NCBI GenBank assembly: GCA_963717535.1 | Contig: OY970344.1 | Span: 35,306 to 99,305, forward strand | Direction of reading: 5' to 3' | Origin: an uncultured Verrucomicrobiae bacterium | GTDB lineage: Bacteria; Acidobacteriota; Terriglobia; Terriglobales; Acidobacteriaceae | Length of the DNA: 64,000 nt | In this document: in pieces, positions 13,405 through 35,163 of the stretch | How positions within the stretch are numbered: the stretch's first letter is position 1 | Layout of the letters: each line of letters opens with the position of its first letter | The notes under the pieces: model-generated | The model's database searches: none | What the model saw: the letters and a program-made list of their open reading frames with translations, nothing else | Told to the model about the DNA's origin: nothing | Made by a program: the position numbers and the translations under genes

Positions 13405-13851
13405 TCAGAGACCGCAGACCTGACGCATCAGGGTTTCGACGATCTGGTCCTCCGTGGATTCCCGGTTGGTCGCCATGCCGTTATGCCCAATATGGAGATA
13501 GGTGTAGCCCGTTGCGCCATGTTGCACGGTCGAGAAGAGCGGAGAGTGACTGGGGAGCACGGTGATCTGCAGCCTGCTGTCTTCAATGGAGAACTCCAGC
13601 TGCTTGACGCCATTCAGGACGTGGGGGCCCAGCTCGTCCGCCCGCGTCAGGCTCAGGGGAGGGAGCTGGCCCGCATTTTGGTTGAAGGACTCCACCTCTT
13701 CACGGAGCCGGCCAACCAAGGATTCGAGGGCAGCTCCGTCCGATGCTTTCTGGCTGGCGATCTTTCTGGTTTCGGCCTCTTCAAGCTTTAAGCGGGCGTC
13801 CGTGCGTCCCTTGAATTCTTCTGCGAGCTTCTTGCCGATGCCGTCCTGCAT
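13405..13851 (-). CDS. Hypothetical protein (148 aa) with coiled-coil-like N-terminus
   Basis: ATG preceded by AGGAACGAGG. Same strand, downstream of nuoD. Confidence 0.65.
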   Translation of the reverse strand: MQDGIGKKLAEEFKGRTDARLKLEEAETRKIASQKASDGAALESLVGRLREEVESFNQNAGQLPPLSLTRADELGPHVLNGVKQLEFSIEDSRLQITVLPSHSPLFSTVQHGATGYTYLHIGHNGMATNRESTEDQIVETLMRQVCGL

Positions 13852-13953
13852 GTGGTGGTGCCTCGTTCCTGAACGCGTCTGTTGTGACCTTACGCTTCGG
13901 GGGCGGAGGGTAAATGTTTACGGCTCGGCTTGCCCAAGGGCGTGATGAGGTGT

Positions 13954-15321: not shown

Positions 15322-15322
15322 G

Positions 15323-15853
15323 TTAGCGGTAGCCCTCCACGGGGTAGTCCTTGCGGAGCGGGTGACCGTTCCAGTTGTCGGGCATCATGATGCGAGTGAG
15401 GCGGGGATGGCCGGCGAAGGTGATGCCGAAGAGGTCGAAGACCTCGCGTTCGTAGAAGTTGGCCGAGGGCCAGACGCCCGTGATGGAGTCGATGGTGGGG
15501 TTGTCGCCGGGGGGGCGCGCGATGATGCGGATGCGCTGCTTGAGGCGGTGCGACAGGAGGGAGTAACTGACCTGAAACCGCGGTTGGGAAGGCGTCCAGT
15601 CGACGGCCGTGAGGTCCTCGAAGAAGTTATAGCCGGCCTCTTTGGCGGCGCTCACGGCGGCGACGATGGTCTCGGGCGCGACGGTGAGGGTGAGTTCCCC
15701 GCGATCCCATTTGGCGTCGGTGGTGAAGGGGGCGAGCGCGGTGAGGGTGTCGGCGAAGACGGGGTGGCTGGCAAGGGCTTCGCGGACGGCGTCGGGGCCG
15801 AAGGCGGCTTGTTGGGTGGCGGCGGTGACGCTGGTGTCGTTGGATTCAGGCAT
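15323..15853 (-). CDS. nuoC: NADH-quinone oxidoreductase subunit C
   Basis: EREVFDLFGITFAGHPRLTRIMMPDNWNGHPLRKDYP signature. Confidence 0.96.
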   Translation of the reverse strand: MPESNDTSVTAATQQAAFGPDAVREALASHPVFADTLTALAPFTTDAKWDRGELTLTVAPETIVAAVSAAKEAGYNFFEDLTAVDWTPSQPRFQVSYSLLSHRLKQRIRIIARPPGDNPTIDSITGVWPSANFYEREVFDLFGITFAGHPRLTRIMMPDNWNGHPLRKDYPVEGYR

Positions 15854-15886
15854 GTGGTGGCCCCTTAAGGTGTGTCGCTGCGACGC

Positions 15887-15924
15887 AAAAAGCAGATCCC
15901 CTGCGGGAATGACAGACAGGAAAG
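15887..15924. repeat. Short REP-like palindromic element at the nuoA-nuoC junction
   Basis: Minus strand reads GTCATTCCC-GCA-GGGGATCTGC followed by a T-run. It resembles an intergenic repeat I recall from Acidobacteriaceae genomes. Only one copy in this window. Confidence 0.4.
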
Positions 15925-15937
15925 TAACGCGAGGACT

Positions 15938-16345
15938 TTACAGATCGGCTTTGTCGTTCACGAAGTTGAGGATGCCCTTCTTCCAGACGTAGAAGAGGCC
16001 GACGGCGACGAAGCCCAGATAGACGAGCATCTCCCAGAAGCCGAAGAGGCGGGAGCCGGTGATGGCGGGCAGGCGGCGGTAGATGACGGCCCACGGCAGC
16101 ATGAAGACGGCTTCGACGTCGAACAGGATGAAGAGCATGGCGACCATGTAGAAGCGCACGGAGAAGCGGCCGCGGGCGTCACCAATGGGCTCCATGCCGC
16201 ACTCGTACGCGCCTAGTTTGTTGCGATTGCGCCGGTGCTTGCCGATAAAGAAGGAGCCGGCGACCATGCCGCCTGCCATCCCCACGGCGATCAGGATCTG
16301 AAAGGCCAGAGGAATGTATTGCCAGAGATAGGGGTGGTTTTGCAT
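15938..16345 (-). CDS. nuoA: NADH-quinone oxidoreductase subunit A
   Basis: KLGAYECGMEP, RFSVRFYMVAMLFILFDVEAVF and YVWKKG. Confidence 0.97.
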   Translation of the reverse strand: MQNHPYLWQYIPLAFQILIAVGMAGGMVAGSFFIGKHRRNRNKLGAYECGMEPIGDARGRFSVRFYMVAMLFILFDVEAVFMLPWAVIYRRLPAITGSRLFGFWEMLVYLGFVAVGLFYVWKKGILNFVNDKADL

Positions 16346-16509
16346 GCGCCCTCAACGTTCAGGGTAGGAGGGGGTGGGTGGAGTGTCAAGGTGACAGGTG
16401 GGGGATTGTGAGTGCGGTGAAGATTGCAGATTTGCTGCTGCTCAGAAAGAAGCAAGGTCTGACGCAAAGGTCGCGGAGGTTGCACCAGGGTACGCGACGG
16501 GCGCTGTGG

Positions 16510-17445
16510 CTAGAGGAGGCCCTTGTACCAGGTGAGGAGGGCCTCACCAAGGAGAGCCGTGAGCAGGCCGCCGGCGGCGAGGAAGGTGCCGAGAGGCAGC
16601 TTCGTTGCGGCGGTCGCGCGGCCCCGGGCGAGGAGGTAGACCGCGTAGGCGGCGCAGGCGATCATGCCGAGGAAGAAGGCGAGCATGGCGTCCCAGAAGC
16701 CGAGAAAGGCGGCAATCATGCCCAGGAGCTTGGCGTCGCCAAGGCCCATGCCTTCGCGGCCGCGAAGCGCTTTGTAGAGGGCGCGGATGAGGAGCAGGAG
16801 GCCGGCGGCGGCGAGAATGGCGAGCAGGCGGCCGAGGATAAGAGCCTCAGGGCCGGTGAGGAAGACGTCGCCGCGCGCCGCGAAGGAGCCCGGGCTTTGC
16901 ATGCGCATATTGGTGTGCGGGGTGAGGTGAATGTCGGCTTCGCCCGTGGGCAGGAAGACGGCCTGCACACAGACCAGGAAGAAGCCGAGGGCGGTACCGG
17001 TGAGGGTGAGGGCGTCGGGAAGGGTGTGGGTTTGCCAGTCGATGACGGCGAGCCCGATGAGGAGGAAGCCGAGGAGGCTGGCTCCGATGCCGTCCAGAAG
17101 CAGGCGAGTGGTGTGGTCGGCCCCTGCAGCCGCGAAGTCGGCGAGGATCGCGCGGTGGGTTGCGAGAAAGGTGAGGAGAAACCAGGCGGCCGTGGCGAGT
17201 TCAACGGCGGGGTAGCGCCAGGAGATGGGCGCGTGGCAGTGCCGGCAGCGGCCGCGCAGAATCAGCCAGCTCAGGACGGGGATGTTGTCGTACCAGCGGA
17301 TGGTCGCGTTGCAATGCGGGCAGTGCGAGCGGGGGGTGGCGAGGCTTTCCCGGCGTGGAATGCGGTAAATGGCGACATTCAGAAAGCTGCCGAGGAGCAG
17401 GCCGATCAAGACGGCTGACAGCTCAAAGGGCCAGGCGTACGACAT
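16510..17445 (-). CDS. Prepilin peptidase (A24 family, PilD-like)
   Basis: GSFLNVAIYRIP, two CxxC Zn motifs (CPHC, CRHC), catalytic Asp motifs IDWQTHTLPD and GMGLGDAKL, and LPLGTFLA. Confidence 0.92.
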   Translation of the reverse strand: MSYAWPFELSAVLIGLLLGSFLNVAIYRIPRRESLATPRSHCPHCNATIRWYDNIPVLSWLILRGRCRHCHAPISWRYPAVELATAAWFLLTFLATHRAILADFAAAGADHTTRLLLDGIGASLLGFLLIGLAVIDWQTHTLPDALTLTGTALGFFLVCVQAVFLPTGEADIHLTPHTNMRMQSPGSFAARGDVFLTGPEALILGRLLAILAAAGLLLLIRALYKALRGREGMGLGDAKLLGMIAAFLGFWDAMLAFFLGMIACAAYAVYLLARGRATAATKLPLGTFLAAGGLLTALLGEALLTWYKGLL

Positions 17446-17478
17446 GATGGTGAGTGTAAATGGCGTGTTTTGATGGGC

Positions 17479-18126
17479 TCAGAAGGGCAGTAAGACCAGC
17501 GGAATCACCATGCCCGCAAGCAGCAGACCAGTGATCAGGAGCTTGTTGCGGTTGTACCGATAGGCCATGTAGACCCCGGTAAACGTGCTGGTGAACAGCC
17601 CCAAGCTTACGAGCAGGAAGAAGATCTTTAACGGGAGGTGCTGCTTCTGTTTGCTTGCGAGGGTGACTGGCGGTTTCGCCGCGGAGGCAGTCCCTGCCGT
17701 CGCAGTCGGTGGTGCGGCGCTGAACTTTGGGCTGTTCGCATCCGACCCGCGCTGCGCTGCGGCTCTCTCCCCGGGAGCGCCGTCAGGTTGGGCCAGACTG
17801 GCGGGTCGGACGGGGCTACCGCTTGCCTGGGCGGCGGCGGACTTTTCTCGATGATCCTGGGGCGCCGGGGAACGTCCGGGAGGCAGCATCCATGTCTGGT
17901 TCTTGTGAATCTGGGCCCAGACCGCGAGCACGGCCGGCGGTTTGTACGCGCTTCCAGCCGCCTCATGGAGACTCAGGGTCTGCATGGCTCCCGTGAACGC
18001 AAAGAACCACAACGCGGGTGTGATGAACAGGCCGAAGTACAGGTGGACTTGACGAAGCAGTCTGAGCGTCTCAGCGCTGGAAGCAGATCGAGCCTTGGCC
18101 GCCGTGGAGTTCGTGATGGTCGTCAT
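17479..18126 (-). CDS. PepSY-associated TM-helix membrane protein
   Basis: LRQVHLYFGLF..P...FAFTG His-containing helix, a QIHK second His, an Ala/Pro-rich linker and two C-terminal helices. Confidence 0.65.
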   Translation of the reverse strand: MTTITNSTAAKARSASSAETLRLLRQVHLYFGLFITPALWFFAFTGAMQTLSLHEAAGSAYKPPAVLAVWAQIHKNQTWMLPPGRSPAPQDHREKSAAAQASGSPVRPASLAQPDGAPGERAAAQRGSDANSPKFSAAPPTATAGTASAAKPPVTLASKQKQHLPLKIFFLLVSLGLFTSTFTGVYMAYRYNRNKLLITGLLLAGMVIPLVLLPF

Positions 18127-18234
18127 GGGAGGTTGTACGCAGATGGTACATGCCCGGGATCAGCGACAGTGAAATTGCGAGCCACATTTGAGCGGCGCAG
18201 GACGAAGACTCGGGACCCGGGGGCGGGTGCGATT

Positions 18235-19677
18235 TTAGAAGTCGATGTGGGTTCGAACGCTGAGAACGGCGACGGGACCGCGGTCAAGGTTGTAACCGGG
18301 GTGGGCGATCAGTTGCGCATCCAGGGCGGTGAACAGACCGCGCCAGTTGTGGGCGTTGTAGTAGGTCTCCAGGATGTCTTCGCGTGCGTAGTGGAGGCGG
18401 CCATCCCCGAGCAGGAAGCCCTTGCCGCCGAGGGCGAGGTAGGTCTGGTGATCGCGCTTGATGGCGTTCGTCACGCCGACAACGCCGAACTTGTCATTGG
18501 GGCGGTTCCAGCGGTGGCCGGCCATGTCGGCCCCCGCTTCGAAGGTCTGGTCGACCTCCGTATAGGCGTAGCTCTCGTGCTGGCCCTCGTTCCAGCCGAA
18601 GCGGCCGAAGGCGCGCACGTCGGAGGTAAGGTCTTGCTCGAAGTTGAGGCCGAGCCCGTACTTCACTGTGCTGGCGGCAGCATGGGCGGTGATGACTGGG
18701 ACGGCGCTCCGGTCGGCGCTGACGCGCTCGGCAAGCGCTGCGTTAATGACGTTGCGATAGACGCCCATGTTGGCGTGATTGACGAAGCCGAGAAGACGAA
18801 CAGCACCTTCCAGATCCTTCCCGCCCTTGCGTCGCATCAGGCGGGCGAAGGGGGTTCGGCGATATTCAAGTTCGTAGTTTTCGCCCCGGGCCCGGCGCAG
18901 ATTCCAATCGAGGTCGATCCCGTTAGCGACGGTGGGCATCAGGGCGAGGCCGTAGCGGGCGGACCAGTTCTTGTCGTCGTACTCGGCGATCGCGGCGTAA
19001 GTGTAGCCGCGAGTGTCGGCCGCGTAGTCGTAGGCCCCGTTGTTGTCTACGGTCCAGTTCATGAACTGCAGGTGGGAATCGGAGCCAGGGCCGTTGAGGT
19101 CGAAGACGTCAGGTAGGCCCATGCGGCCGACGCGCAGATCGAGGCGCCGTACGGGAAGCTTGGTCGGCAGTGAGAGCGTTGTGCGAGGGCTGTCTCGTTC
19201 CTCCCCGGTAAAGCCGATCACCTGGTGGAGTTCGACGCGGGCGACATAAGGCTTGGGGCCGAGGTTGGGGTTGCGCACCACGTCGAGGTTGGTGAAGCCT
19301 GCGAGGCCGAGGGCCTCTGAAATACCGCGTCCCCCGGAGGACTCCACGTCAAAGATGAAGTCGGTGGCGTAGCGTGGATTCGGATTGAGCTGGAAACCGG
19401 TGAAAAGCGTGCCAAGGAGTGACGTCTTGTATTCACCACGGGCAAGCAGGGAGTTGGTGTCCGCATACGGTGAGTGGAAGCCAGGGTGGGACTGAAAGAT
19501 GATGTTGGCCTGGCCGGAGATGAGGTAACGGGTGGACTCCGGGTGGGCAAAGACGGTGGTCTCCTGCTGCAGGGGCACCTGAGTCTGGCTCTCCCCCGCA
19601 TGCTGGGCGAGACCGGTCGCGAGAGACAGGGGAGCCAGGAGTAGCGGCGCTAACTGGCGGAGGCGGGGTAAACGCAT
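18235..19677 (-). CDS. Outer-membrane porin, OprB/carbohydrate-porin clan (MnoP-like)
   Basis: Signal peptide, GFTNLDVVR, FMNWTVDNNGAYDYAADTRGYT, GFLLGDGRLHY..E...E.YY and a terminal RTHIDF beta-signal. Confidence 0.8.
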   Translation of the reverse strand: MRLPRLRQLAPLLLAPLSLATGLAQHAGESQTQVPLQQETTVFAHPESTRYLISGQANIIFQSHPGFHSPYADTNSLLARGEYKTSLLGTLFTGFQLNPNPRYATDFIFDVESSGGRGISEALGLAGFTNLDVVRNPNLGPKPYVARVELHQVIGFTGEERDSPRTTLSLPTKLPVRRLDLRVGRMGLPDVFDLNGPGSDSHLQFMNWTVDNNGAYDYAADTRGYTYAAIAEYDDKNWSARYGLALMPTVANGIDLDWNLRRARGENYELEYRRTPFARLMRRKGGKDLEGAVRLLGFVNHANMGVYRNVINAALAERVSADRSAVPVITAHAAASTVKYGLGLNFEQDLTSDVRAFGRFGWNEGQHESYAYTEVDQTFEAGADMAGHRWNRPNDKFGVVGVTNAIKRDHQTYLALGGKGFLLGDGRLHYAREDILETYYNAHNWRGLFTALDAQLIAHPGYNLDRGPVAVLSVRTHIDF

Positions 19678-19723
19678 GCGTGACGTAATCCGGGTGAGTT
19701 TGATCAGGCGTTGTTTCGGTACG

Positions 19724-19740
19724 ATACCCCCCTATGGTAT
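19724..19740. promoter_or_regulatory. CsoR/RcnR/FrmR-type operator
   Basis: ATACCCCCCTATGGTAT: ATAC(C)/(G)GTAT inverted arms flanking a six-C tract, in the short divergent gap between the porin and repressor genes. Confidence 0.75.
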
Positions 19741-19767
19741 ACAAAGGTGCATTAAAGGGTAGTGAAG

Positions 19768-20043
19768 ATGCCGGAGCTGGACAGGGAACGCGTCAAGTTG
19801 ATCAACCGGGCAAAGCGAATCCTTGGGCAGATGGGGAGGGTAGAGCGGAGCCTGTCGGAGAAGGACGAGTGTACGGAGGTGTTGATGCTGCTGGCCGCTG
19901 TTCGCGGTGGCATCGACGCGTTGATGGCGGAGGTGCTGGAGGATCATATCCGGCTGCATCTGCTCGATCGCGGCAAGGCCAAAGCGCTGACGCCGGAACT
20001 GGGCGAAGAGCTGATCGATTTGGTGCGGGCGTACATGAAGTAG
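19768..20043 (+). CDS. CsoR/RcnR/FrmR-family metal/formaldehyde-sensing repressor
   Basis: RAKRILGQ, ECTEVL...AAVRGG..ALMAEVLEDH. Counting from ATG 19768 gives Pro2, Cys35, His60 and His64. Confidence 0.92.
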   Translation: MPELDRERVKLINRAKRILGQMGRVERSLSEKDECTEVLMLLAAVRGGIDALMAEVLEDHIRLHLLDRGKAKALTPELGEELIDLVRAYMK

Positions 20044-20149
20044 CGGGACTTGACCCCAAGCGGGCCTTCGAAATAAGATCCAAGTACACGGGAAAGGAGG
20101 ATGGTCCAGCCTATGAAATTTGATTGTTCTAGTTGTTGCTTTACTGCAC

Positions 20150-20263
20150 GTGAGGTGACTGAGGCTTAGAGCTCCGCGCTCTAGACCTGACGGTCTGTTT
20201 TGTAAGAACAGTGAAGTCCCCGTCGAGGCCCATCCGAGTCGGATGCCCTCAAGTCAATCCCAC
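20150..20263 (+). ncRNA. Candidate structured non-coding RNA (unassigned)
   Basis: By-eye fold: closing stem 20150-20164/20247-20263 enclosing hairpin TAGAGC/GCTCTA, stem CCTGACGG/CCGTCGAGG with inner CTGTTT/GAACAG, and hairpin CATCCGA/TCGGATG. AT-rich promoter-like DNA upstream and a terminator downstream. Confidence 0.45.
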
Positions 20264-20276
20264 CAGATCACCGCAT

Positions 20277-20315
20277 AACGGCTCGTCTGCTTCGGCAGGC
20301 GGGCCGTTTGTGTTT
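20277..20315 (+). terminator. Intrinsic terminator-like hairpin
   Basis: AACGGCTCGTCTGC-TTCG-GCAGGCGGGCCGTT (14 bp with two G-U pairs, UUCG loop) followed by TGTGTTT. Confidence 0.65.
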
Positions 20316-20390
20316 GTGCTTGCAGGTTGATTGCTGGGGACGGGCTCGAGACGCGATGTCCGCCCGGAATGCACGGCGTAGGATTTAAGA

Positions 20391-21213
20391 ATGAGCAATG
20401 CGGTGATGGAGCGGGCTGAAGCGGTGAGCATGACTTCGGGTGCGGATGACCTGGTGATTGCAGGACGGCGCTTCCGGTCGCGTCTGATTGTTGGGACTGG
20501 AAAGTATAAGGATGGGCCGGAGACGAAGGCTGCGATTGAGGCTTCCGGGGCCGAGATGGTCACGGTAGCGGTGCGGCGCGTGAATCTCGACCGCTCGCAG
20601 GAAAGTCTGCTGGACTTACATCGATCCGGTGCGGTACTTCCTGCTGCCCAATACAGCTGGATGCTACACGGCCGAGGAGGCAATCCGGGCCGCCAGACTG
20701 GCGCGCGAGGTCGGGCTGTCCGACTGGGTAAAGATCGAGGTCATCGGCGATCAGGCGACCCTTTACCCCGACGTGCAGGCTACCGTTGAGGCGACAAGAG
20801 TTCTTGTGAAAGAGGGATTTACTGTTCTGCCGTATACCACGGATGACATCGTGTTTGCGAAGCGGCTGATCGACGTCGGTGCGGCAGCGGTGATGCCGCT
20901 TGGCGCGCCGATCGGGACGGGGTTAGGGATTGCGAACTCATACACGCTCCGGATGATGCGGGAGCTGATCACGGAGGTCCCGCTGGTCGTCGATGCAGGG
21001 CTGGGTACCGCGAGCGATGCGGCCCTTGCGATGGAGATGGGCTTCGATGCGGTGCTGTTGAATACCGCAATGGCAGGCGCAAAGAACCCTGTGCTGATGA
21101 GTTCAGCGATGCGCAAGGGGACGGAGGCTGGGCGGGAGGCGTTCCTGGCCGGCCGGATGCCGAAGAAGCTGTATGCGACTGCGAGTTCGCCGTTGGAGGG
21201 GATCTCGCGGTAG
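20391..21213 (+). CDS. thiG: Thiazole synthase, split by a +1 frameshift at about 20616 (probable sequence error)
   Basis: Frame 1: [10 protein letters not shown]...EMVTVAVRR. Frame 2: [39 protein letters not shown]. Removing one T from GACTTAC restores [16 protein letters not shown]. Confidence 0.93.
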
Positions 21214-21222
21214 GGCTGCGCG

Positions 21223-21741
21223 CTAATCCAGGGAGGCGAAGGTCTCTGTCAGGTCGACGTGTATTGGGGTGTTCGGCACAGTGAGTTGGGTTGGATCGGC
21301 TTCATGGAGGCCCGTGGCGTTGTAGGTGAAGGCGGCTCGGTAGATGGGATCGATGAGCCAGATGTTCTCGACACCCATAGCGAGGTAATCGGCGAGAACG
21401 AGCTTGGTGCGGCTGAAGCGGTCATCCGGAGAGAGCACCTCGACACAGATGAGTGGAGGAGTGGTGGTGACGGCCTCGCGGGGTGCGTCCGCACGGAGGA
21501 TGGCTACGTCACAGACGCGGACCTGGTTGGGGCGAACGCGGATGCGTTGTTCTACGACGGGGTCGGTGGCCCACTGCTTCGCATTCAGGGTGAAGATGTG
21601 GAAGAGCCAGCCTTGGATCTTGCCGTGTTCGTAGGTGCCCACGTTTCGCGCCTCGAGTCCCCCGTCCACGAAGTCGAGATCCGGCTTGTAACTGGTGTGA
21701 AGGTACTGGTCAATGGAAAGCGGGAGGGGAGCGGTCGCCAT
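21223..21741 (-). CDS. Uma2/DUF820 family restriction-endonuclease-like protein
   Basis: YKPDLDFVDG.LE, DVAIL...PLICVEVLSPDD and YLAMGVENIWLIDP. Confidence 0.88.
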   Translation of the reverse strand: MATAPLPLSIDQYLHTSYKPDLDFVDGGLEARNVGTYEHGKIQGWLFHIFTLNAKQWATDPVVEQRIRVRPNQVRVCDVAILRADAPREAVTTTPPLICVEVLSPDDRFSRTKLVLADYLAMGVENIWLIDPIYRAAFTYNATGLHEADPTQLTVPNTPIHVDLTETFASLD

Positions 21742-21783
21742 GGGTGCACCTCAGGGCCAGTGTAGACGGAGCGCGCTGTAGAA

Positions 21784-23265
21784 CTAAGCCACAACACCCG
21801 CGAGACTCGATCGGAGTGGGGCGAGGCGCGTCTGTTCGAGGTCGTCGCGGTAGAAGAGGTTGTAGGTGTCGAAGGGGATGAGGCGCTGGGCGTCGGGGTG
21901 GGCGATGTGGATGCAGGTCTTGCGGATGGAGCGCAGGTCGAAGCTGTCGGCGTCGATGAACTGAACGATGAGGATGCGGAAGAGGTTTTGGTACGAGAGG
22001 TTTTTGGGACTCAGGACCTGTGGCAGGCAGCATAGGAGATCGCGAAGGGTGCTGGCCTGGGACTGCGGCGAGTGATTGGTGGAAAAGAGCTTGAAGAGCC
22101 CTTCTTTCACCGGGTTTGCGGCGGCTTTGGCGAGCAACTCCGGGTTCCGGGCGAGGTGCGCGCGGATGCCGCTGTCCTGTTCATAGATGATGGTGTTGGC
22201 CGCGCCGTTGATGAGTACCTCGGGCGGAATGAGGCTGGTGAGTGGGGTGACGTTGCCTGCGAGTTTCAGGGCGTAGCCCATGGCGAGCGAGTCGGGGTGG
22301 CACGGAACGGGGATGATGTCTTCGGGCTTGAAGACGGAGGTCTGCTCGAGGATGCGACGCCGGACTTCGGTGAGGGTGAGTCGGTGCTGGGCGGGGTCGT
22401 AGCCGCCGAGGCGCCCGGCCTGTTGAACCGGCTGAAAGGTGACGCCCCGGATGCAGGGCTGTGTGAGAGCGAAGTCGACTATGGCGCCGAGTTCGGTGTC
22501 GTTGACGCCGCGCTCGACGGTGACGACGAGGGTCGTGGAGATGCCGAGTTCGTTGAGGCGGGCGAGGGCACGTTCGCGGATGCTCCGCAGGTCGGCGCCG
22601 CGGAGCTGCATCAGCGGATCGCGTTTGAGAGAGTCGAACTGGAGGTAGAGTTCGAAGCGGGGCATGTACGTGGCGAGGCGCTGGGCAAAGGCCGCGTCGG
22701 TGGCGATACGGATGCCGTTGGTGTTGACCATCAGGTGCTTGATGGGGCGCTGTTTGGCGGCGTCGAGGACCTCGAAGAACTGCGGATGGATGGTGGGTTC
22801 GCCGCCGGAGATCTGGACGATGTCAGGCTCCATCTCGTTGCGGACGATGGTGTCGAGCATGCGTTCGATCTGCTCGAGTGAACGATGCGTGGTGCGATGG
22901 GTGCCGCTTGAGGCGTAGCAGATGGGGCAGTCGAGGTTGCAGACGTCGGTGATCTCCAGCAGCGTGAGGCAGGAGTGCTGCTCGTGGTCGGGGCAGAGGC
23001 CGCAGTCGTAGGGGCAGCCGTATTTCACGGGTGTGTTGAAGTGCTGCGGCATCTCGGGTGGCTTGAGGAAGACTTCGCGGCAGCGGCGGTAGTAGTCGAC
23101 GTCGTCGGCCATGAGGATGCGCTGGAAGCCGTGGGTGGGGCAGCGCTTGAGCATGTAGACGTGATTGTCTTCGAAGACGATCTTGGCATCGACGCGGCGG
23201 AAGCAGGTCGCGCAAAGGGAGACCGCGGTGTCGTAGAAGAGGTAGGGGCGGGTGGGTGCGGTCAT
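21784..23265 (-). CDS. Radical SAM enzyme of the tetraether synthase (Tes/GDGT-MAS, MJ0619)-like family
   Basis: From ATG 23265: rubredoxin-like C18xxC21...C42PTH45, auxiliary GC84PYDC88GLC91PDH, radical SAM C109NLDC113PIC116, SGGEPT, NTNG, YLQFD, and C-terminal KTCIHIAHPD..LIPFDTYN. Confidence 0.85.
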   Translation of the reverse strand: MTAPTRPYLFYDTAVSLCATCFRRVDAKIVFEDNHVYMLKRCPTHGFQRILMADDVDYYRRCREVFLKPPEMPQHFNTPVKYGCPYDCGLCPDHEQHSCLTLLEITDVCNLDCPICYASSGTHRTTHRSLEQIERMLDTIVRNEMEPDIVQISGGEPTIHPQFFEVLDAAKQRPIKHLMVNTNGIRIATDAAFAQRLATYMPRFELYLQFDSLKRDPLMQLRGADLRSIRERALARLNELGISTTLVVTVERGVNDTELGAIVDFALTQPCIRGVTFQPVQQAGRLGGYDPAQHRLTLTEVRRRILEQTSVFKPEDIIPVPCHPDSLAMGYALKLAGNVTPLTSLIPPEVLINGAANTIIYEQDSGIRAHLARNPELLAKAAANPVKEGLFKLFSTNHSPQSQASTLRDLLCCLPQVLSPKNLSYQNLFRILIVQFIDADSFDLRSIRKTCIHIAHPDAQRLIPFDTYNLFYRDDLEQTRLAPLRSSLAGVVA

Positions 23266-23501
23266 TTGCGTAATCGGCCCAAGATGAGTCGGGCAATAGA
23301 GAGCAGGCCGATGATGAGCATGCCGAGAAGGCTGCTCCAGAAGAGGAAGGCACCAGTTTCGATGACGATTGGGGATACGCGCTCGTTGCCGATCAGGACA
23401 CCGATGCCACATGTGCCCACGCCAATACCCGCACCAATGCTGCAAAGCACAAGCGCTTTGGTGAAGTCGACGGCATCACTCTTCGCGAACTGCTCGAACA
23501 T
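23262..23501 (-). CDS. Small two-helix membrane protein with G-T-C-G-I box (79 aa)
   Basis: Its TGA overlaps the radical SAM ATG (ATGA at 23262-23265). Two hydrophobic segments. Aligns with the 23564-23860 protein. Confidence 0.75.
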   Translation of the reverse strand: MFEQFAKSDAVDFTKALVLCSIGAGIGVGTCGIGVLIGNERVSPIVIETGAFLFWSSLLGMLIIGLLSIARLILGRLRK

Positions 23502-23563
23502 GGGTCAGCGTGGGCCTGGGGAGTTTGGTTGAGTATACGGACAGGAGGCGCCTAGGGTGTGAG

Positions 23564-23860
23564 TCATGGCTTGCCGGACTTGAATCTGTCGAGCAGGACT
23601 GCGGTCAGCAGGCCCAACAGCGAGAAGCAAAGGCCCAACGCACCGACAAGCATTCCAAGAAGCTCGAGCGCACCCAGTGCGACCAGCACCACGCCTGCCG
23701 TGTTCCTGGCGGGGCTCGAGGAGGTGCCTCCGCGGGCGAGCCCGAACAAGTTGAAGCTGACGTAGTTGATGCCGCAAAGGCCAGCGGAGATCAGGAGAGC
23801 GACACCGAACAGAGTCGTGGCGCGGAACCAGACGTCGCGGTCGGTCCTGGAGCTAGACAT
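23564..23860 (-). CDS. Small two-helix membrane protein with G-L-C-G-I box (98 aa)
   Basis: Its ATG overlaps the Lgt-like stop (ATGTCTAG). Two hydrophobic segments. Paralogous to the 23262-23501 protein. Confidence 0.78.
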   Translation of the reverse strand: MSSSRTDRDVWFRATTLFGVALLISAGLCGINYVSFNLFGLARGGTSSSPARNTAGVVLVALGALELLGMLVGALGLCFSLLGLLTAVLLDRFKSGKP

Positions 23861-24608
23861 GCTCCAGTCCTTGCTCGGCGACCGCAGCGCCCTCAGGGCG
23901 ACGATCCGAGACCGCGTTGAACGCGACGAAGAAGAGGCCGAGCAGGCAGCCCCATTGAATCAGGTTCATGCCAAGGACCGTGGGTTGAGGCTTCAGAAAA
24001 TCGATCAGCAGGCGCCAGGTAAGGTAGGCGGCCATGAAGAGGCGAAACGTCGAGCCGTTGGTGTGGGAACGGCGGCTCTGCCAGTGGAGAAGGCCAGCGA
24101 GTGTCGTGAGGAAGACAATCTCATAAAGCTGGGTGGGGTGTCGGGGGATGCCGTCACCGAAGTCGACAGCCCACGGGAGCGTGGTGGGTTTGCCGAACGT
24201 ATCGTCCGCCAAGCCGGCGAGAAAGCAGCCGATGCGGCCGACGGCCACGCCGATGCAGAGAGGGAGGGCGAAGAGGTCGCCCGTGCGGGTGCGGATGTTC
24301 TGGATCTTTTTGGTGAACTCGACGACCAGCCAGCCGCCAAGCAGGCCACCGACGATGGTCTTGCCACCGCCGGGCAGCAGGGCTTGCGTCCAGGTGATGT
24401 GAATGCGGGGTGCCTGCTCCAGTAGACCGAGCAGACGGCTGCCGAGGAGTGCGCCTACTGTTGCTGCGGCGATGATGCTCCAGCGCTGCTGCTGGCTGAG
24501 CACGTCGCCGGCGCTACGGCGTCGACGTTTGTAGGTCGCGAAGCCAAGTACGTAGCCCAGCGTCTCAAAAAGAGGGTGAAGCGCGGGAAGGGGGTGCAGG
24601 TGAAGCAC
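23853..24608 (-). CDS. Prolipoprotein diacylglyceryl transferase-like protein (divergent Lgt paralog)
   Basis: GRIGCF, FGKPTTLPWAVDF, RHPTQLYE and Y..WR..IDF. The SFHGG motif is replaced by KTIVGG. Confidence 0.88.
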   Translation of the reverse strand: MLHLHPLPALHPLFETLGYVLGFATYKRRRRSAGDVLSQQQRWSIIAAATVGALLGSRLLGLLEQAPRIHITWTQALLPGGGKTIVGGLLGGWLVVEFTKKIQNIRTRTGDLFALPLCIGVAVGRIGCFLAGLADDTFGKPTTLPWAVDFGDGIPRHPTQLYEIVFLTTLAGLLHWQSRRSHTNGSTFRLFMAAYLTWRLLIDFLKPQPTVLGMNLIQWGCLLGLFFVAFNAVSDRRPEGAAVAEQGLEHV

Positions 24609-24645
24609 ACTGAGGAGTTTAGCGCGCCGTGTCGACGCCGGTGGC

Positions 24646-26127
24646 TTACTCCAGCGCGTACATGGCGAGGCCGCTCAGGAGCTTGGGGTAGAAGTCGGTG
24701 GACTTCTGGGGCATGACTTCGAGGTTGAGGGAAATATCCCTCATCTGGTCGAGGGTCACTGGCTTGATTAAGAACGCAACATCGGCATTGCCGGAGCCAA
24801 CTTGTTGGAGAGCGTCGTGCGCTTCCCGGACGTAGCGGACATGGTTGCCGCCGCGAACAGTGTCCTCGTTGAGATGAAGGAGCTGTTCGAGGGCGAGTTT
24901 GTGTAGCTGGACGACGTTGAGCTGCTGCTGACGGGGGCTCAGGCCGGCGGTGAACTGGGCGACCGCGTCGGGCTTCGGCGTGAGCAGGAAGTCGCCGTCG
25001 CGGGTGGCCGCGATGAAAGCTACGCCGGCAGCCGCGTTCAGACGGTTGAGCAAGGTGCTTTCCCCGGGGAAGTGACCGTCGGGGGTCGAGGGGATCTCTT
25101 CGACTGTGAAAAGGCGCTCGGCTTGCTCCGCGAAGTGCCGCCCATTGAAGTGGGGCAGGCCGAAGACGACGCGGTGGGTGGGGAGGATGGTGATGCCGGG
25201 CGCGTCCATATTGACGAAGGTCATCATCATGGCTGCTTCAGGAAAGGGCGGTTGGGGCAGGCTTGTGCCTTCCTTGCCGGGGATCCCGGATTCACCACGC
25301 GGGCTCCGGGACGCAGTTCCCACCTCGTTGTTTAGCTCCGGTCGAGAGGACACATCCGAAAACGTGTCCGACAGCGGGGCGTCCTTGGGAGCAGGTGCGG
25401 GCTCGAAGCCTAGCTGTTGGGCTCGTTCGTGCATGTAGGAGACGGAGGTCTCATAGCGGTGGTGGCCGTCAGCAATGATGAGCGATTTGTCGCTCATGGT
25501 TTCAAGGATTTTGCCGATAAGGTCTGAGTCCGTCAATTTCCAGACGCGATGAACGACGTTATATTCGTCGATGATCTCGAGGTCGGCGGGCCGGGGCTGG
25601 CCTGTGGGGGAATCGAAGATGAGGTGTTCCGCAGTGAAGGAGGGGTCGGAGTAGAGCATGTAGATCTGTTCCGGATAGGCACGAATCGCTTTGAAGAGAG
25701 CGAGGCGGTCGGATTTGTGCTTGGGGAAGGTCTGCTCGTGGCGATAGACGACGTGTTCGGCGTAGTCATAGAGATGGCCCAAAGCGATGAAGCCGCGACG
25801 TTCGCGCACCTCGTCGGTGCCGGGCACGGTGTAGGTCTGCGAGTAACCGTAGAGCGCAGGCTCTGACTCTTCGCGAAGGATGCCTTCACTGCGCCAGGCG
25901 GCGAAGGTTGCCGCCGCGCGGGTGTAGACGTTTTTCTGATCATTGTCGGCGGGCTCACGCTTGCCCAGGACGACGCGGATGAGGTTGTAAGGGCTCTTCG
26001 CGTAGTAGTTCGCCTGCATTTCCGGCGAGATCTTGTCGTAGGGCTGAGTGACCACATCAGCCATGTTGACGCGGGCGGTGTCATAACGGAGGGCGCGGAA
26101 GGGATACAGGCGAGCCATTGATGTCAT
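24646..26127 (-). CDS. DUF1015 family protein
   Basis: PFRALRY, PYD.IS, RHEQT, IADGHHRYET, ILPTHR and MPQKSTDFYPKLLSGL. Confidence 0.88.
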   Translation of the reverse strand: MTSMARLYPFRALRYDTARVNMADVVTQPYDKISPEMQANYYAKSPYNLIRVVLGKREPADNDQKNVYTRAAATFAAWRSEGILREESEPALYGYSQTYTVPGTDEVRERRGFIALGHLYDYAEHVVYRHEQTFPKHKSDRLALFKAIRAYPEQIYMLYSDPSFTAEHLIFDSPTGQPRPADLEIIDEYNVVHRVWKLTDSDLIGKILETMSDKSLIIADGHHRYETSVSYMHERAQQLGFEPAPAPKDAPLSDTFSDVSSRPELNNEVGTASRSPRGESGIPGKEGTSLPQPPFPEAAMMMTFVNMDAPGITILPTHRVVFGLPHFNGRHFAEQAERLFTVEEIPSTPDGHFPGESTLLNRLNAAAGVAFIAATRDGDFLLTPKPDAVAQFTAGLSPRQQQLNVVQLHKLALEQLLHLNEDTVRGGNHVRYVREAHDALQQVGSGNADVAFLIKPVTLDQMRDISLNLEVMPQKSTDFYPKLLSGLAMYALE

Positions 26128-26409
26128 TGTACGGACGAGATCCCTGGACGGAGTTCCAGAAGACAGTTGGCTGTTGATGTTGAGGAAGGATCACCGCTTC
26201 TCCCGAACCCTTGGGGCGTCGGCTGGGACGAATGCCCGCATGTCACGATGTCGGCGAAGTGTCAGCGCGATCCCTCGAAGAAAGGCGGAGAGTCATTGCG
26301 GGTAGTGAACAGAGCGATCTCTGGGGAATAGACGGCGAAGACGTTTCGGATTAGTCTAGGCGCACGCAAGTTGAAGGCGACCGCCACGTCAGGGGTGAGT
26401 GGAGGCAGG

Positions 26410-27447
26410 ATGCGGGTTCGGGCTAGGTTTGAGGGAGCATGGCGCAGCATCCTGTTCTGCGGGGTGTTCGCGTTTTGCTGTTCGGGATTGCAAGCGCAGG
26501 AGAACCCACTGGACTCGGTCCATACGGCTGCTCCGGCGCCCGTTCCCCCGAAAGACGCCCCGCCCGTACTGAAGGGCGATGATGTTGCGGCGAAAGCAAC
26601 GTCTACCAAGGGGAGGGCCATTCAGGTGAATGCGGACCTGGTGCTGGTCCCGGTCACGGTAACCGATCCGCAGAATCGGCTGGTGACAGGCCTGGAACGG
26701 AGCAATTTTCAGTTGTTCGACAGCAACACGGCGCAGACGATCAAAAGTTTCGCTACGGAAGATGCCCCGCTTTCTATTGGGATTGTCTTTGACCTGAGCG
26801 GGAGTATGCAGTCCAAGTTTGTGCGGTCGCGCAAGGCTCTCAGCGAATTCCTGCATACGTGCAATCCTCAGGATGAATTTTTCGTCATTGGTTTTAACGA
26901 TCGGCCTGCGGTGCTAGTGGATTACACCTCCGACGTGGAAGACGTAGAAGCGCGCATGGTGATGTTGCGGCCAGAGAACCGAACGGCTTTGATCGACGCA
27001 CTGTACCTGGGGGTCAACAAGCTTCGCGATGCCAAGTATGCGCGGAAGGCGCTGCTCGTGGTCTCGGACGGTGGAGACAACCGGAGCCGGTACACGCAGG
27101 GCGAACTGATGCGTGCCGTGCGTGAGAGCGAGGTGCAGATTTACTCCGTTGGCATCTTCGACGCGTACGCGCCGACTGTGGAGGAACAGAACGGGCCGCA
27201 GCTGTTGCACGAGATGTCGGAGGCAACTGGTGGACGGCTGTTCGTGGTGCGGGATGTTCAGGATCTGAGCGATATTGCGCAACGGATCAGCGAGGAACTG
27301 CGCAACGAGTACGTGATTGGGTACACGCCCACGGATCGCCGCCGCAACGGCAGTTGGCGTAAATTGAACGTGCGATTGGTGCCGCCTCCCGGGCTTCCGG
27401 AGCTGACGGTGCATAATCGCGAGGGGTACTATGCGCCGTCGCAGTAA
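26410..27447 (+). CDS. Acidobacterial VWA-domain protein
   Basis: GGAGG SD and signal peptide. DLVLVPVTVTD, MIDAS DLSGSM, TALIDA, SDGGDNRS, ELRNEYVIGY and REGYYA. Confidence 0.9.
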   Translation: MRVRARFEGAWRSILFCGVFAFCCSGLQAQENPLDSVHTAAPAPVPPKDAPPVLKGDDVAAKATSTKGRAIQVNADLVLVPVTVTDPQNRLVTGLERSNFQLFDSNTAQTIKSFATEDAPLSIGIVFDLSGSMQSKFVRSRKALSEFLHTCNPQDEFFVIGFNDRPAVLVDYTSDVEDVEARMVMLRPENRTALIDALYLGVNKLRDAKYARKALLVVSDGGDNRSRYTQGELMRAVRESEVQIYSVGIFDAYAPTVEEQNGPQLLHEMSEATGGRLFVVRDVQDLSDIAQRISEELRNEYVIGYTPTDRRRNGSWRKLNVRLVPPPGLPELTVHNREGYYAPSQ

Positions 27448-28607
27448 AGGATTTTGGGCCAGAGTCACGGCGGCATTTGTTTGTTGTCTTCTATTCGTGC
27501 AGAGCGAGGTACGTGCGACCGGGCAAAGCAGCGCGGTCCCGTCGCAACAATCGCCGGGGACGGTGCCCGGCGGAAATCCGCAGGTCCCGCCTCCTTTGGA
27601 CAGCGATCCCGTGCCCTCACCTGACCCTGCCACGCCGCTGCCAAAACCTGGAGCGCCCGCAGGCGAGGCCCAAGCCGGGCAAACCGGAGCGGCAGCCGCC
27701 GGCGTCGTGCAGCAGGAGGGCGGCCGTTACACCCTAAGGGCCGAAGCTTATGAAGTGCGGCTGAATGCTTCGGTGATCGACGGTTCCGGGCGTGAGGTGG
27801 AGGATCTGCCGAAGGATGCCTTCCATGTGTATGAAGACGGCGTACCGCAGACGATTCTGGGCTTCCGGCATGAAGATCTGCCCGTTTCACTGGGCATACT
27901 GATCGACAGTTCGGGGTCAATGTACGACAAGCGGGCGGCCGTGGATGCGGCGTCGCTGGACCTGGTGCGCTTGTCCAACCGGCAGGATGAAGCGTTCCTG
28001 GTGGACTTCAGTTCAGAAGCCTACATCGACCAGGACTTTACTGCCGACATCAATAAGCTGCAGCAGGGTCTGAGCTATATCAAGTCGAGTGGCGGGACAG
28101 CGCTGTATGACGCCGTCATCGCGTCGGCGGATTACCTTGCCAAGAACGCGAAGCGTCCGAAGCAGGTGCTGCTCGTGGTCACCGACGGCGACGACAATGC
28201 GTCGAGCGCAACGCTGGAGCAGACGATCCGTCGGGTGCAGGAGTTGGACGGGCCGGTGATCTACTGCATCGGTTTGCTGTTCGGGGAAGATACGAGCCGG
28301 AGCGAGTCGCGGCACTCCAGGCAGGTGCTCTCCGAGCTTTCCGAGCAGACGGGCGGCCAGGCGTACTTCCCGCACTCGCTCAAGGACGTGGACGGAATCA
28401 CACGTGAGGTCGCCGCAGGACATTCGGCAGCAGTACACGATCGAATACCGCAGCACGAAGCCGCCGTCGCAGGGAGGATATCGGCAGGTGCACGTGGAGG
28501 CGAAGGGGAAAGGCTTTGGAAAGCTGCAGGTGAGGACGCGGGCGGGGTATTATCCGCGAACTACCGCGGCCGGAAGTGCAGGGAAAGCCGGGTCGCCGGG
28601 GCGGTAG
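27431..28607 (+). CDS. Second acidobacterial VWA-domain protein, +1 frameshift at about 28413 (probable sequence error)
   Basis: MIDAS DSSGSM, TALYDA, TDGDDNAS. The conserved tail DIRQQYTIEY...RTRAGYYP is in the next frame (28404-28607). Removing one C from GTCGCCGCAG restores VAQDIRQQ. Confidence 0.88.
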
Positions 28608-28724
28608 GGTCGGGCTAACCTGCTATATCGCTTGAAGAAGCATGGGCCTACGGCGAAGATTTGCATCCAAAACCGTGAGCACGCAAGGGCCTGCGCAGCA
28701 GGACGAACTTGAGTTAGGAGCACG

Positions 28725-30503
28725 ATGCTGGAGCTTTCAACGCTGAATGATGTGTTTGCGCGCGTGGCGGCGCGAGGCGACGAGACCGTCGCCCAGTACA
28801 AAGACGGGGGCGAATGGAAGCCCATCACCTCCAAACAGATGTACGGCCGCGTCCGTGCCGTGGCGGAGCAATTGCAGAGCTGGGGCATTCAGCGCGGTGA
28901 TCGCGTGGCCCTGGTGGGCGAAAATCGCTGGGAGTGGCCGGTGGTGGACTTTGCCGTCCTGGCCATCGGAGCAGCGGATGTGCCCCTGTACCAGACCCTG
29001 ACTCCGGATCAGATGGCCTTCATCCTGAATGATTCAGGGGCAAAGGTGATCTTCATGTCGAACAAGGATCAGTTCGACAAGCTGATGAAAGTTGCGGACA
29101 AGGTCAAGACGATTGAACACGTCGTGGTGTGGGATGAGGGTGAGTACACGGGCGCCGAGAGCTTCAAAACTATCTTGAAGAACGCGCCCGAGTTGGAGAC
29201 GCAGGACCAGGGCTTCGATGCGCTGCTGCGTTCTGCGAAGCCGGAAGAACTGGCGTCGATCATCTATACGTCGGGCACCACGGGCGATCCGAAGGGCGTC
29301 GCGCTGACACACAACAATATGGCGTCCAACCTGCAGCATTCCACGGATGACTTGAACATCGGGAAAGGCGATACCTCGATCTCCTTTTTGCCGTTGAGTC
29401 ATGCGCTGGCGAGGCATCTTGACTATGCGATCTATGCGCATGAGGGAACGATCGCCTACCTGCCGAAGTTCGACGACCTGCCAAACGCGATGAAGGCAGT
29501 GCGGCCGACGATCTTCCTCGCGGTGCCGCGGGTGTACGAGAAGATACGGCAGGCTGTGCAAGGGCGGGCAAAGGGCTTCCAGAAGAAGGTCCTCCACTGG
29601 GCTTTGGGACAGGGCGGAAAGCACAAGGAGCACGTCGCGGCAGGGCGAACTCCAGGTTCTCCCGCGTGGAAAATTGCAAACTACCTGGTCTTTGGCAAAG
29701 TGAAGGAGGCGTTTGGCGGCAACGTCAAGCTTTACGTTTCCGGCGGCGCCCCGTTGGGCAAGGAAACGACTGACTGGTTCCTGAGCGCGGGCATTCGAAT
29801 TGTGGAAGGTTATGGAATGACAGAGGTCTCGCCAGTCATCGCGCGCAGTACCTTTGCGGCGTTCCGTCCCAATTCGGTAGGGAAGGTGATTCCGAACCTG
29901 GAAGCCCGGTTAGCGGCAGACGGCGAGTTGGAAGTACGGGGATCTTCGGTCTTTCAGGGCTACTGGAACAACGAAGAAGCGACCAGGAAGGAATACACAG
30001 AGGACGGCTGGTTCAAGACGGGCGACATCGGGAAGTTTGAGGATGGATTCCTGATGATCACCGATCGCAAGAAGGAGCTGATGAAGACCTCTGGCGGCAA
30101 ATACATTGCGCCGCAGCCGGTGGAAAGCAAGTTGAAGAGTGATGGGCTGGTGGAGCACGCTGCCCTCATCGGGGACAATCGCAAGTTTGTCAGTGTGCTG
30201 ATTTCTCCGAACTTCAAGGCACTGGAGAGCTGGGCCAAGCAGAACGGGGTAGCGGTCAGTGGCCGGCCGGAGCTGGTGAAGGATCCCAGGGTGCAGAAGC
30301 TATACCAGGGCATCGCTGAGAAGGTGAACGGCGGGCTCGCGCACTTCGAGACCATCAAGAAGGTGACCGTCGTGCCGGACGAGTGGAGCGTGGAAGAAGG
30401 AGAACTAACGCCGAGCCTCAAGCTGAAGCGCCGTGTACTCACCGAGAAGTACAAGGACCAGATTGAGGCAATGTACGGGGGCGGAGAGGGCAAAGAAGGG
30501 TGA
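28725..30503 (+). CDS. Long-chain fatty acid-CoA ligase (AMP-dependent synthetase)
   Basis: YTSGTTGDPKG, SFLPLSH, EGYGMTE, WFKTGDIG, DRKKELMKTSGGKYIAP and LTPSLKLKR. Confidence 0.93.
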   Translation: MLELSTLNDVFARVAARGDETVAQYKDGGEWKPITSKQMYGRVRAVAEQLQSWGIQRGDRVALVGENRWEWPVVDFAVLAIGAADVPLYQTLTPDQMAFILNDSGAKVIFMSNKDQFDKLMKVADKVKTIEHVVVWDEGEYTGAESFKTILKNAPELETQDQGFDALLRSAKPEELASIIYTSGTTGDPKGVALTHNNMASNLQHSTDDLNIGKGDTSISFLPLSHALARHLDYAIYAHEGTIAYLPKFDDLPNAMKAVRPTIFLAVPRVYEKIRQAVQGRAKGFQKKVLHWALGQGGKHKEHVAAGRTPGSPAWKIANYLVFGKVKEAFGGNVKLYVSGGAPLGKETTDWFLSAGIRIVEGYGMTEVSPVIARSTFAAFRPNSVGKVIPNLEARLAADGELEVRGSSVFQGYWNNEEATRKEYTEDGWFKTGDIGKFEDGFLMITDRKKELMKTSGGKYIAPQPVESKLKSDGLVEHAALIGDNRKFVSVLISPNFKALESWAKQNGVAVSGRPELVKDPRVQKLYQGIAEKVNGGLAHFETIKKVTVVPDEWSVEEGELTPSLKLKRRVLTEKYKDQIEAMYGGGEGKEG

Positions 30504-31342: not shown

Positions 31343-31390
31343 GCAGTGGCGGCCAAAGGCAACCCGCCACCGCTCCCAGGCTGGCATGAG

Positions 31391-31810: not shown

Positions 31811-31862
31811 GGTGCTCCTTTGTGGCTGTGCCGAGGTGTTGGATGCGCGTTCGGCGTGTGGG

Positions 31863-35147: not shown

Positions 35148-35163
35148 GATGGAGTGACACGTT

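Follow-up and report, generated by a model that had tools for sequence, protein, structure and literature searches.

The closest described relative of the system reported here is the archaeal tetraether synthase Tes (GDGT-MAS, MJ0619; pdb-codes: 7TOL and 7TOM), an enzyme of the radical S-adenosylmethionine (SAM) type in glycerol dialkyl glycerol tetraether (GDGT) synthesis. Its C-terminal cluster is ligated by three cysteines and the labile Met439 and carries a C–S lipid intermediate (Lloyd et al. 2022, PMC9433317; 2026 review, PMC13459092). A precedent for the binding of bacterial lipids is given by its crystallisation with bacterial phosphatidic acid in the tunnels (PMC9433317). Bacterial Tes homologs were proposed by Zeng et al. 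as synthases of branched GDGTs (brGDGTs), including a single homolog in Edaphobacter aggregans (32% identity, E 4e-61) and homologs in Koribacter and Solibacter (40–42%). The brGDGTs underlie widely used palaeotemperature and pH proxies, and their acidobacterial biosynthetic enzymes are not yet identified; a characterised bacterial Tes homolog appears neither in a 2026 paper nor in a 2026 review (PMC13459092). Here we describe a Tes-related radical SAM gene on the minus strand (21784..23265) of a 64,000-nucleotide stretch of DNA, the window (contig OY970344.1), from an uncultured relative of the Acidobacteriaceae. The gene is accompanied by one for an integral membrane protein related to Lgt, and we refer to the subfamily linked in this way as class L. 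We propose that the product of the radical SAM gene is the soluble, catalytic component of a radical enzyme for membrane lipids that consists of two parts, fused in some lineages, and differs from Tes in its chemistry, and consider the chances of this proposal evenly balanced.

Fold and metal-site motifs of the radical SAM protein

The 493-aa protein (N-terminal letters MTAPTRPYLFYD) matches the Pfam profile Radical_SAM (PF04055; 77.7 bits, gathering cut-off 29.5) and, at its N-terminus, Zn_ribbon_HMPTM, the MJ0619 family profile. It sits between the curated NCBIfam families TrsS and Tes and inside neither. Over the whole protein, the scores are 307.8 bits for TrsS (NF045646, cut-off 490), which is the best match and covers residues 14–472, and 262.4 bits for Tes (NF045702, cut-off 450), whose hidden Markov model (HMM) aligned only with the N-terminal residues 15–323 and a short C-terminal stretch. 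GDGT-MAS/Tes is also the sole strong sequence match in the PDB (7tol_A, E 2.4e-66), with the alignments to 7TOL/7TOM limited to residues 14–322 and 423–485 and the middle part (323–422) unaligned. An AlphaFold2 (AF2) model based on 85 sequences has a mean pLDDT (predicted local distance difference test) of 89.8 and is confident except for residues 385–419. Foldseek matched this model end-to-end with 7TOL (E 1.7e-38, template modelling (TM) score 0.76), followed by structures with TM ~0.37 that match in the radical SAM core only. According to the model, the overall four-domain Tes fold is present. The Tes-like assignment made in an initial annotation of the sequence therefore holds; since no structure other than 7TOL matches over the full length, an unrelated radical SAM subgroup is ruled out.

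For a comparison of individual residues, the MJ0619 sequence was rebuilt from HMMER alignments, the resulting numbering reproducing the published C9/C12/C33/H36, C73/C77/C80 and M439 (PMC9433317). Three N-terminal metal motifs pair one to one between MJ0619 and the radical SAM protein, and all residues named for them in the initial annotation were found at the claimed positions. Conservation was assessed in 85 orthologs, i.e. loci among the matches listed in the scans. The first motif belongs to a zinc-ribbon domain at residues 10–53 (23107..23238, minus strand as for all features of this gene; Pfam PF23545, E 1.5e-16), in which C18, C21, C42 and H45 align with MJ0619 C9, C12, C33 and H36. The predicted rubredoxin-like Cys3His site occurs in every ortholog covering the region, with H45 replaced by cysteine in three. 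The second motif, CPYDCGLCPDHEQHSC (22969..23016), provides C84, C88, C91 and H94, which match MJ0619 C73, C77, C80 and the following histidine and are predicted to ligate an N-terminal [4Fe-4S] cluster. The third is the radical SAM motif CX3CX2C with C109, C113 and C116 (22918..22941), identified by Pfam and the MJ0619 alignment and invariant in the orthologs. In the radical SAM protein and most of its bacterial relatives the second motif is extended to C-x3-C-x2-C-x2-H-x2-H-x-C; the additional H97 and C99 are invariant in the 85 orthologs, as are C84, C88, C91 and H94. Because MJ0619 lacks equivalents of H97 and C99, the N-terminal cluster of the bacterial proteins may be ligated differently.

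The C-terminal half deviates more profoundly. The text of the Tes structure paper names none of the three cysteine ligands of the C-terminal cluster (PMC9433317), and the C-terminal domain of MJ0619 contains only five cysteines, C338, C438, C455, C456 and C470. We read six site columns (322/326/434/450/451/466 in the numbering of the window protein) in 76 full-length family representatives. Met-type, Tes-like sequences always show the pattern x-C-M-C-x-C, with variable residues in columns 322 and 451. Given the strictly conserved cysteines of the Met-type columns, the five cysteines available in the MJ0619 domain and the published ligation by three cysteines and Met439, the Tes ligands are presumably C338, C455, C470 and M439. 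In the alignment these residues correspond to S326, V434, T450 and D466, while MJ0619 S334 and C456 align with C322 and C451, and the window protein reads C-S-V-T-C-D. Among the orthologs, the four columns of the presumed Tes ligands, below called site A, are occupied by S/C/A/T (326), V/M (434), S/T (450) and D/E (466). A Tes-type C-terminal [4Fe-4S] cluster held by three cysteines and a labile methionine is thus not provided for by the sequence.

The initial annotation had described the C-terminal cluster of the archaeal enzyme as bound by Cys and Met and as the holder of the lipid-radical intermediate, in agreement with the published descriptions (PMC9433317, PMC13459092), and had called its ligands altered. 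The alignments bear out the change, which was understated, since all four presumed Tes ligands are replaced. The motifs quoted in support, PVPCHPDS, LLCCLP and IPFDTYN, occur at residues 319–326, 410–415 and 463–469, respectively. PVPCHPDS (22288..22311) indeed has a single cysteine, but this invariant C322 is not the cysteine of MJ0619, which has serine there and its own cysteine (C338) four residues later, at the column of S326. The remaining site A columns fall into the C-terminal strand region 433–469 (21859..21969) with V434 (Tes Met439), T450 (Tes C455), C451, H453 and D466 (Tes C470).

A different set of cysteines is strongly conserved instead. No ortholog that covers the respective positions is without C322 or C451, and C412 and C413 occur in 83 of 85 each; H453 is kept in 81 of 85, and an acidic residue (Asp or Glu) occupies position 466 in 82 of 85. 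The pair C412-C413 lies in a conserved mobile loop, FSTNHSP...LLCCLP (residues 394–415, 22021..22086), which is kept as FSTNHSP...L[RK][DE]LLCCLP from Acidobacteria through Paenibacillus and is homologous to a CxxC loop of relatives. The LLCCLP motif, noted initially as an extra of this protein, is real but not peculiar to one sequence; it is a signature of the whole subfamily. The same site pattern recurs in 57 natural fusion proteins (see below), each loop cysteine in 56 of them. Family-wide, three patterns can be distinguished at the six columns: the Tes-type x-C-M-C-x-C, C-C-[HQK]-C-C-C in a large bacterial group containing the TrsS-like proteins, and C-[SACT]-[VM]-[ST]-C-[DE] in class L. 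In tests that ignore phylogeny, C322 and C451 co-vary across the family (55 with both, 9 with neither, 9 discordant; Fisher p ~1e-5), and a loop C-x(0-2)-C accompanies them in 35 of 55 sequences with both cysteines versus 2 of 18 others (p ~1e-4). This co-variation of C322, C451 and the loop cysteines suggests that they form a second C-terminal site, which the archaeal enzyme would lack. On the simplest reading, the family ancestor had two C-terminal cysteine sites, site A (the Tes cluster) and site B (C322, C451 and the loop pair), of which MJ0619 would have kept A, retaining of B only C456 as the counterpart of C451, while class L would have kept B and lost A.

The position between TrsS and Tes raises the question of whether the substrate is a lipid at all. 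It might be a cofactor or an organometallic compound, as suspected for TrsS-type relatives, with the Lgt-like protein serving as a mere membrane anchor. Such an assignment could build on TrsS, not Tes, being the top NCBIfam match and extending over the full length, and on the functional diversity of the family. A family representative of 861 aa (P0269) is fused to a DVU_1551-type nucleoside triphosphate (NTP) transferase and an HD domain, so members have been recruited to quite different contexts. However, the score of 308 bits is far under the TrsS cut-off of 490, and the window protein shows neither the TrsS-like pattern C-C-[HQK]-C-C-C nor its CCHCCC form at the six columns. Moreover, lipids are the substrates of the sole characterised family member, whose fold is kept over its whole length, and the active-site residues conserved in the partner exceed the needs of a plain anchor. 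We therefore regard a non-lipid substrate as quite improbable.

The Lgt-like partner, its distribution and the surroundings of the gene pair

The partner gene (23853..24608, minus strand) encodes an integral membrane protein of 251 aa that matches the Pfam profile LGT over positions 17–233 of 240 (E 8.7e-29) and stays below the Lgt equivalog level (TIGR00544, 56.9 bits versus 118.9). An Lgt-like gene was found within the fetched flanks of 70 of the 85 loci; as 8 of the other 15 have less than ~1.1 kb of upstream sequence, the informative fraction is 70 of 77. It mostly lies directly upstream on the same strand, the two genes abut in most phyla (about ten phyla were covered), and it stays with the radical SAM gene while the flanking genes vary by genome. 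All-against-all clustering of the flanking open reading frames (ORFs) of the 85 loci revealed no other conserved neighbours. The association even extends to natural fusions. A 733-aa protein (P0124) has the order LGT–Zn ribbon–radical SAM, and a search with it yielded 57 fusion clusters with identities down to 48%, in which the Lgt domain is always N-terminal and the class signature is kept; the few named clusters belong to Tepidisphaerales and Verrucomicrobiota. Seven inspected fusion linkers (from the set P0124 and P0392–P0447) contain after the Lgt part a conserved motif ND[TQ]CCG[RKL] with a cysteine pair, which is not found in the separate Lgt-like protein of the window. A literature search for the pairing of Lgt with a radical SAM enzyme returned nothing relevant.

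As a control, metagenomic loci of relatives with all site A cysteines were inspected, of which only 6 of 80 contained an Lgt-like ORF. Five of these six belong to one subgroup with the pattern C-C-R-C-C-C, i.e. with all cysteines kept, and with a homologous LWSSS...CxxC loop; in these loci (L117, L120, L136, L147 and L151) the Lgt-like ORF is located upstream of the radical SAM gene at a distance of ~300 bp. The subgroup looks like a sister group whose link with the partner is older than the loss of site A.

Residues reported to be critical in E. coli Lgt are Y26, H103, R143, N146, E151, G154, R239 and E243. Aligned with the E. coli sequence (pdb-code: 5AZB), the partner keeps the equivalents of R143, R239 and D129 and of the PRHPxQLYE motif, its R125, R199, D111 and the RHP motif being invariant. 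H103 is replaced by valine, N146 by C128, E151 by leucine, and E243 by Asp or Glu. C128 does not vary between partners encoded by a gene of their own and lies within the Lgt signature motif as G-R-I-G-C-F; together with the loss of H103 it may indicate an altered chemistry or a thiol nucleophile of the enzyme. We take the partner to be a divergent Lgt paralog, probably still binding a phosphoglycerolipid. As it retains both arginines and the aspartate with which E. coli Lgt holds phosphatidylglycerol, binding or presentation of a diacylglycerol-type lipid is probable.

The Lgt relationship also permits a scheme in which the lipid is bound to protein: the partner would S-diacylglycerylate a cysteine, and the radical SAM enzyme would modify the tethered lipid or the thioether. 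Candidates for this cysteine are a target lipoprotein, a small membrane ORF, C128 of the partner or the lipobox-like LLCC loop; in a self-loading version, the cysteine tether would replace the cluster-sulfur tether of Tes. The family membership of the partner with its retained phosphate-binding arginines, the invariant cysteine at the N146 position, the flexible, invariant L-L-C-C-L-P loop of the radical SAM enzyme and the additional CC motif conserved in the fusion linkers are all compatible with it, as is the presence of the module in Gracilibacteria, whose strongly reduced genomes are thought to be devoid of fatty-acid synthesis. However, clustering of the flanking ORFs revealed no conserved lipoprotein or peptide gene beside the pair, the small ORFs are missing from most loci, LLCC is atypical as a lipobox, and the partner does not keep the E. 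coli Lgt residues H103, N146 and E151. The topology is awkward as well, Lgt chemistry taking place on the periplasmic side. Overall, we judge a protein-bound lipid substrate to be unlikely.

The distribution of class L was derived from the matches listed in the genome scans, in which an unlisted taxon does not imply absence of the gene. Orthologs with 58–88% identity were listed for Acidobacteriota (Acidobacteriaceae, Paracidobacterium, Bryobacterales, Thermoanaerobaculia, Vicinamibacteria), Bacillota (Paenibacillus, Brevibacillus, Neobacillus, Niallia, Heyndrickxia), Beta- and Gammaproteobacteria (Massilia, Pseudoduganella, Rhodoferax, Rhodanobacter, Dyella, Oleiagrimonas), Planctomycetota, Myxococcota, Longimicrobium, Flavobacteriales, Chloroflexota and Eisenbacteria. 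A distant branch with ~40% identity and the same Lgt-like partner occurs in Sulfuricurvum and Gracilibacteria. The patchy yet highly conserved spread points to an accessory function moved by horizontal transfer. One 66%-identity ortholog with an adjacent Lgt-like gene (locus L030, contig CAZXUC010000008.1) stems from a metagenome-assembled genome labelled as a Halobacteriales archaeon, which reflects either the wrong binning of a contig from a bacterium or gene transfer to an archaeon.

This distribution, combined with the loss of site A, bears on the most obvious function of a Tes-like enzyme in an acidobacterium, namely the synthesis of tetraether or membrane-spanning lipids, in which two iso-C15 chains would be joined tail to tail to iso-diabolic acid or brGDGT precursors, like the phytanyl chains in the case of Tes, and the new cysteine site would replace the cluster. 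The Tes fold, the Acidobacteriaceae affiliation of the host and the orthologs in Bryobacterales, Vicinamibacteria and Thermoanaerobaculia fit such a synthase, and the E. aggregans homolog of the Zeng et al. proposal fits class L. Iso-diabolic acid is produced by Acidobacteria of subdivisions 1, 3, 4 and 6, for which no synthase has been reported and which have no homolog of Mss, the radical SAM membrane-spanning lipid synthase acting on glycerolipid tails in other bacteria. Sahonero-Canavesi et al. reported no Mss homologs in Acidobacteria, but found Tes homologs in just 3 of 14 iso-diabolic-acid-producing acidobacteria. Besides, all four presumed ligands of the cluster carrying the C–S intermediate are lost, the Koribacter and Solibacter homologs (40–42%) are better candidates, and a Tes homolog of Thermoanaerobacter ethanolicus produced no membrane-spanning lipid in E. 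coli. Finally, orthologs with ~60% identity and the same partner exist in Paenibacillus, Brevibacillus, Massilia, Rhodanobacter, Sulfuricurvum and Gracilibacteria, and to our knowledge none of these has been reported to make membrane-spanning lipids. Because of the lost Tes catalytic site and the many taxa without reported lipids of this type, a role of class L as the acidobacterial synthase is possible but distinctly unlikely.

The gene model and the surroundings of the pair can be summarised as follows. The ATG at 23265 shares bases with the stop codon (ATGA) of a 79-aa ORF lying upstream and is favoured as start by the length of close homologs (490–495 aa); the initial choice of this start, giving 493 aa, is judged right on account of this overlap and these lengths. 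A 553-aa ORF starting with TTG was rejected, as the 79-aa ORF covers the extension in another frame and the homologs begin at the ATG. A run search found no RNA-seq runs containing the locus. The 79-aa ORF (23262..23501, minus strand) is predicted to be membrane-bound and of uncertain gene status, with a lone weak homolog in one locus (L001). Also inserted between the partner genes is a 98-aa ORF with hydrophobic segments (23564..23860, minus strand), likewise a predicted membrane protein, which has 8 bases in common with the end of the Lgt-like gene. Its family occurs in 14 loci, with tblastn matches in L001, L007, L010 and L014, and, being absent from most loci, it is outside the core module. 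A DUF1015 gene (24646..26127, minus strand) is found 37 bp upstream and a Uma2-family endonuclease gene (21223..21741, minus strand) 42 bp downstream of the module; both were rejected as parts of the system because they are not beside it in other genomes. Further downstream, the thiazole synthase gene thiG (20391..21213, plus strand) is broken into the overlapping ORFs 20391..20789 and 20629..21213. An additional T in ctggacTtacatc, near 20613–20616, shifts the frame after ...ESLLD, so that the gene is a pseudogene unless the sequence is in error. Neither tRNA genes nor Rfam families at the gathering threshold were detected in the window, and hence no TPP (thiamine pyrophosphate) riboswitch near thiG. 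The GC skew is positive across the whole window (1..64000).

Proposed reaction of the class L pair

Whereas the fold, the motifs that are kept and lost, the conserved four-cysteine set and the Lgt-like partnership are established, we infer that the substrate is a lipid, what the partner does, how the four-cysteine site is built and what is produced. In our proposal of a two-part membrane-lipid radical enzyme, the Lgt-like partner would supply or position a diacylglycerol-type lipid. Electrons would reach the radical SAM cluster via the rubredoxin-like site and the N-terminal cluster and thereby allow generation of a 5'-deoxyadenosyl radical, which would take a hydrogen from an unactivated acyl-chain carbon in a tunnel inherited from Tes. 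The resulting substrate radical would then be resolved at site B, formed by C322, C451 and the mobile C412-C413 loop, and not on a cluster sulfur. Site B could be either a re-ligated Fe-S cluster or a set of thiols acting as redox agents or hydrogen donors. As the Cys3-Met cluster is gone, the product is expected to differ from that of the Tes-type coupling via a cluster-sulfur adduct.

A chemistry or substrate unlike that of archaeal GDGT synthesis had already been suggested in the initial annotation. The suggestion, still of a conditional nature, is strengthened by the Tes HMM score below the cut-off, the conserved Lgt-like partner, the occurrence in taxa not known for membrane-spanning lipids and the different four-cysteine set. 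In a related scenario, the class L pair would perform radical chemistry on lipid tails held on a protein thiol or on a re-ligated four-cysteine cluster, possibly after loading by the Lgt-like protein, and would in Acidobacteria then constitute the missing iso-diabolic-acid-type route to brGDGT precursors; to this we attribute only a slim chance.

Several observations weigh against the proposed two-part lipid enzyme. The identities of the Tes ligands rest on conservation, not on coordinates, and position 326 is cysteine in 24 of 85 orthologs and position 434 methionine in 41 of 85, such that some residual binding at the old Tes site may persist in orthologs with Cys326 or Met434. Despite its conservation, the CC loop was modelled by AF2 at a pLDDT of 32–42 only, and the neglect of phylogeny qualifies the co-variation that defines site B. 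The partnership is also not strictly tied to the loss of the Tes site, given the C-C-R-C-C-C subgroup. A further difficulty is topological: the catalytic site of E. coli Lgt faces the periplasmic leaflet, but the cytoplasm is where a radical SAM enzyme has to work, which complicates the transfer of a lipid from one to the other.

Comparison with known systems

With Tes/GDGT-MAS, class L shares the four-domain fold, the rubredoxin-like Cys3His site, the N-terminal Cys3(+His) motif and the radical SAM motif, and the C-terminal β-strand motifs F-x-D, H-x-x-x-P and P-F-x-x-Y-N are still recognisable. In contrast to Tes, it has exchanged C338 for Ser, M439 for Val, C455 for Thr and C470 for Asp, has C322 and a CC loop missing from MJ0619, is nearly always combined with an Lgt-like partner and occurs in bacteria of many phyla. 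The radical SAM (seleno)protein TrsS and the relatives of the CCHCCC pattern have C322, C451, C99 and a cysteine-containing loop in common with class L, but keep C326, C450 and C466 together with His, Gln or Lys at the methionine position. Mss of Thermotoga and Thermoanaerobacter is likewise a radical SAM enzyme acting on the tails of bacterial glycerolipids, for which an auxiliary cluster as in Tes has been postulated (PMC13459092); by description it belongs to another radical SAM lineage. The SPASM/twitch enzymes (SuiB, SkfB, anSME) also contain one or two C-terminal auxiliary cysteine sites that can be lost independently, yet their C-terminal fold is different and the structural match is confined to the radical SAM core (TM ~0.35).

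The closest relative of the partner is Lgt itself (prolipoprotein diacylglyceryl transferase, E. coli; pdb-codes: 5AZB and 5AZC), with a match over the whole Pfam profile and equivalents of R143, R239, D129 and PRHPSQLYE. The partner differs in being shorter (~210–250 aa), in scoring below the equivalog cut-offs, in the exchange of N146 for Cys and the loss of H103 and E151, and in its linkage to a radical SAM enzyme, which gives this divergent Lgt paralog family its first functional context.

Compared with these systems, class L is a distinct and widespread subfamily defined by the loss of the Tes ligands, the C322/CC-loop/C451 signature and the Lgt-like partner. It splits the bacterial Tes homologs, which are now treated as one candidate pool for brGDGT synthesis; because the large class L clade is without the Tes catalytic cluster, surveys that equate any Tes homolog with tetraether potential will over-call. 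The gene pair offers a tractable entry to an uncharacterised radical SAM reaction at the membrane and, on the two-site reading, a natural experiment on the auxiliary sites of the Tes fold, of which Tes would have kept one and class L the other.

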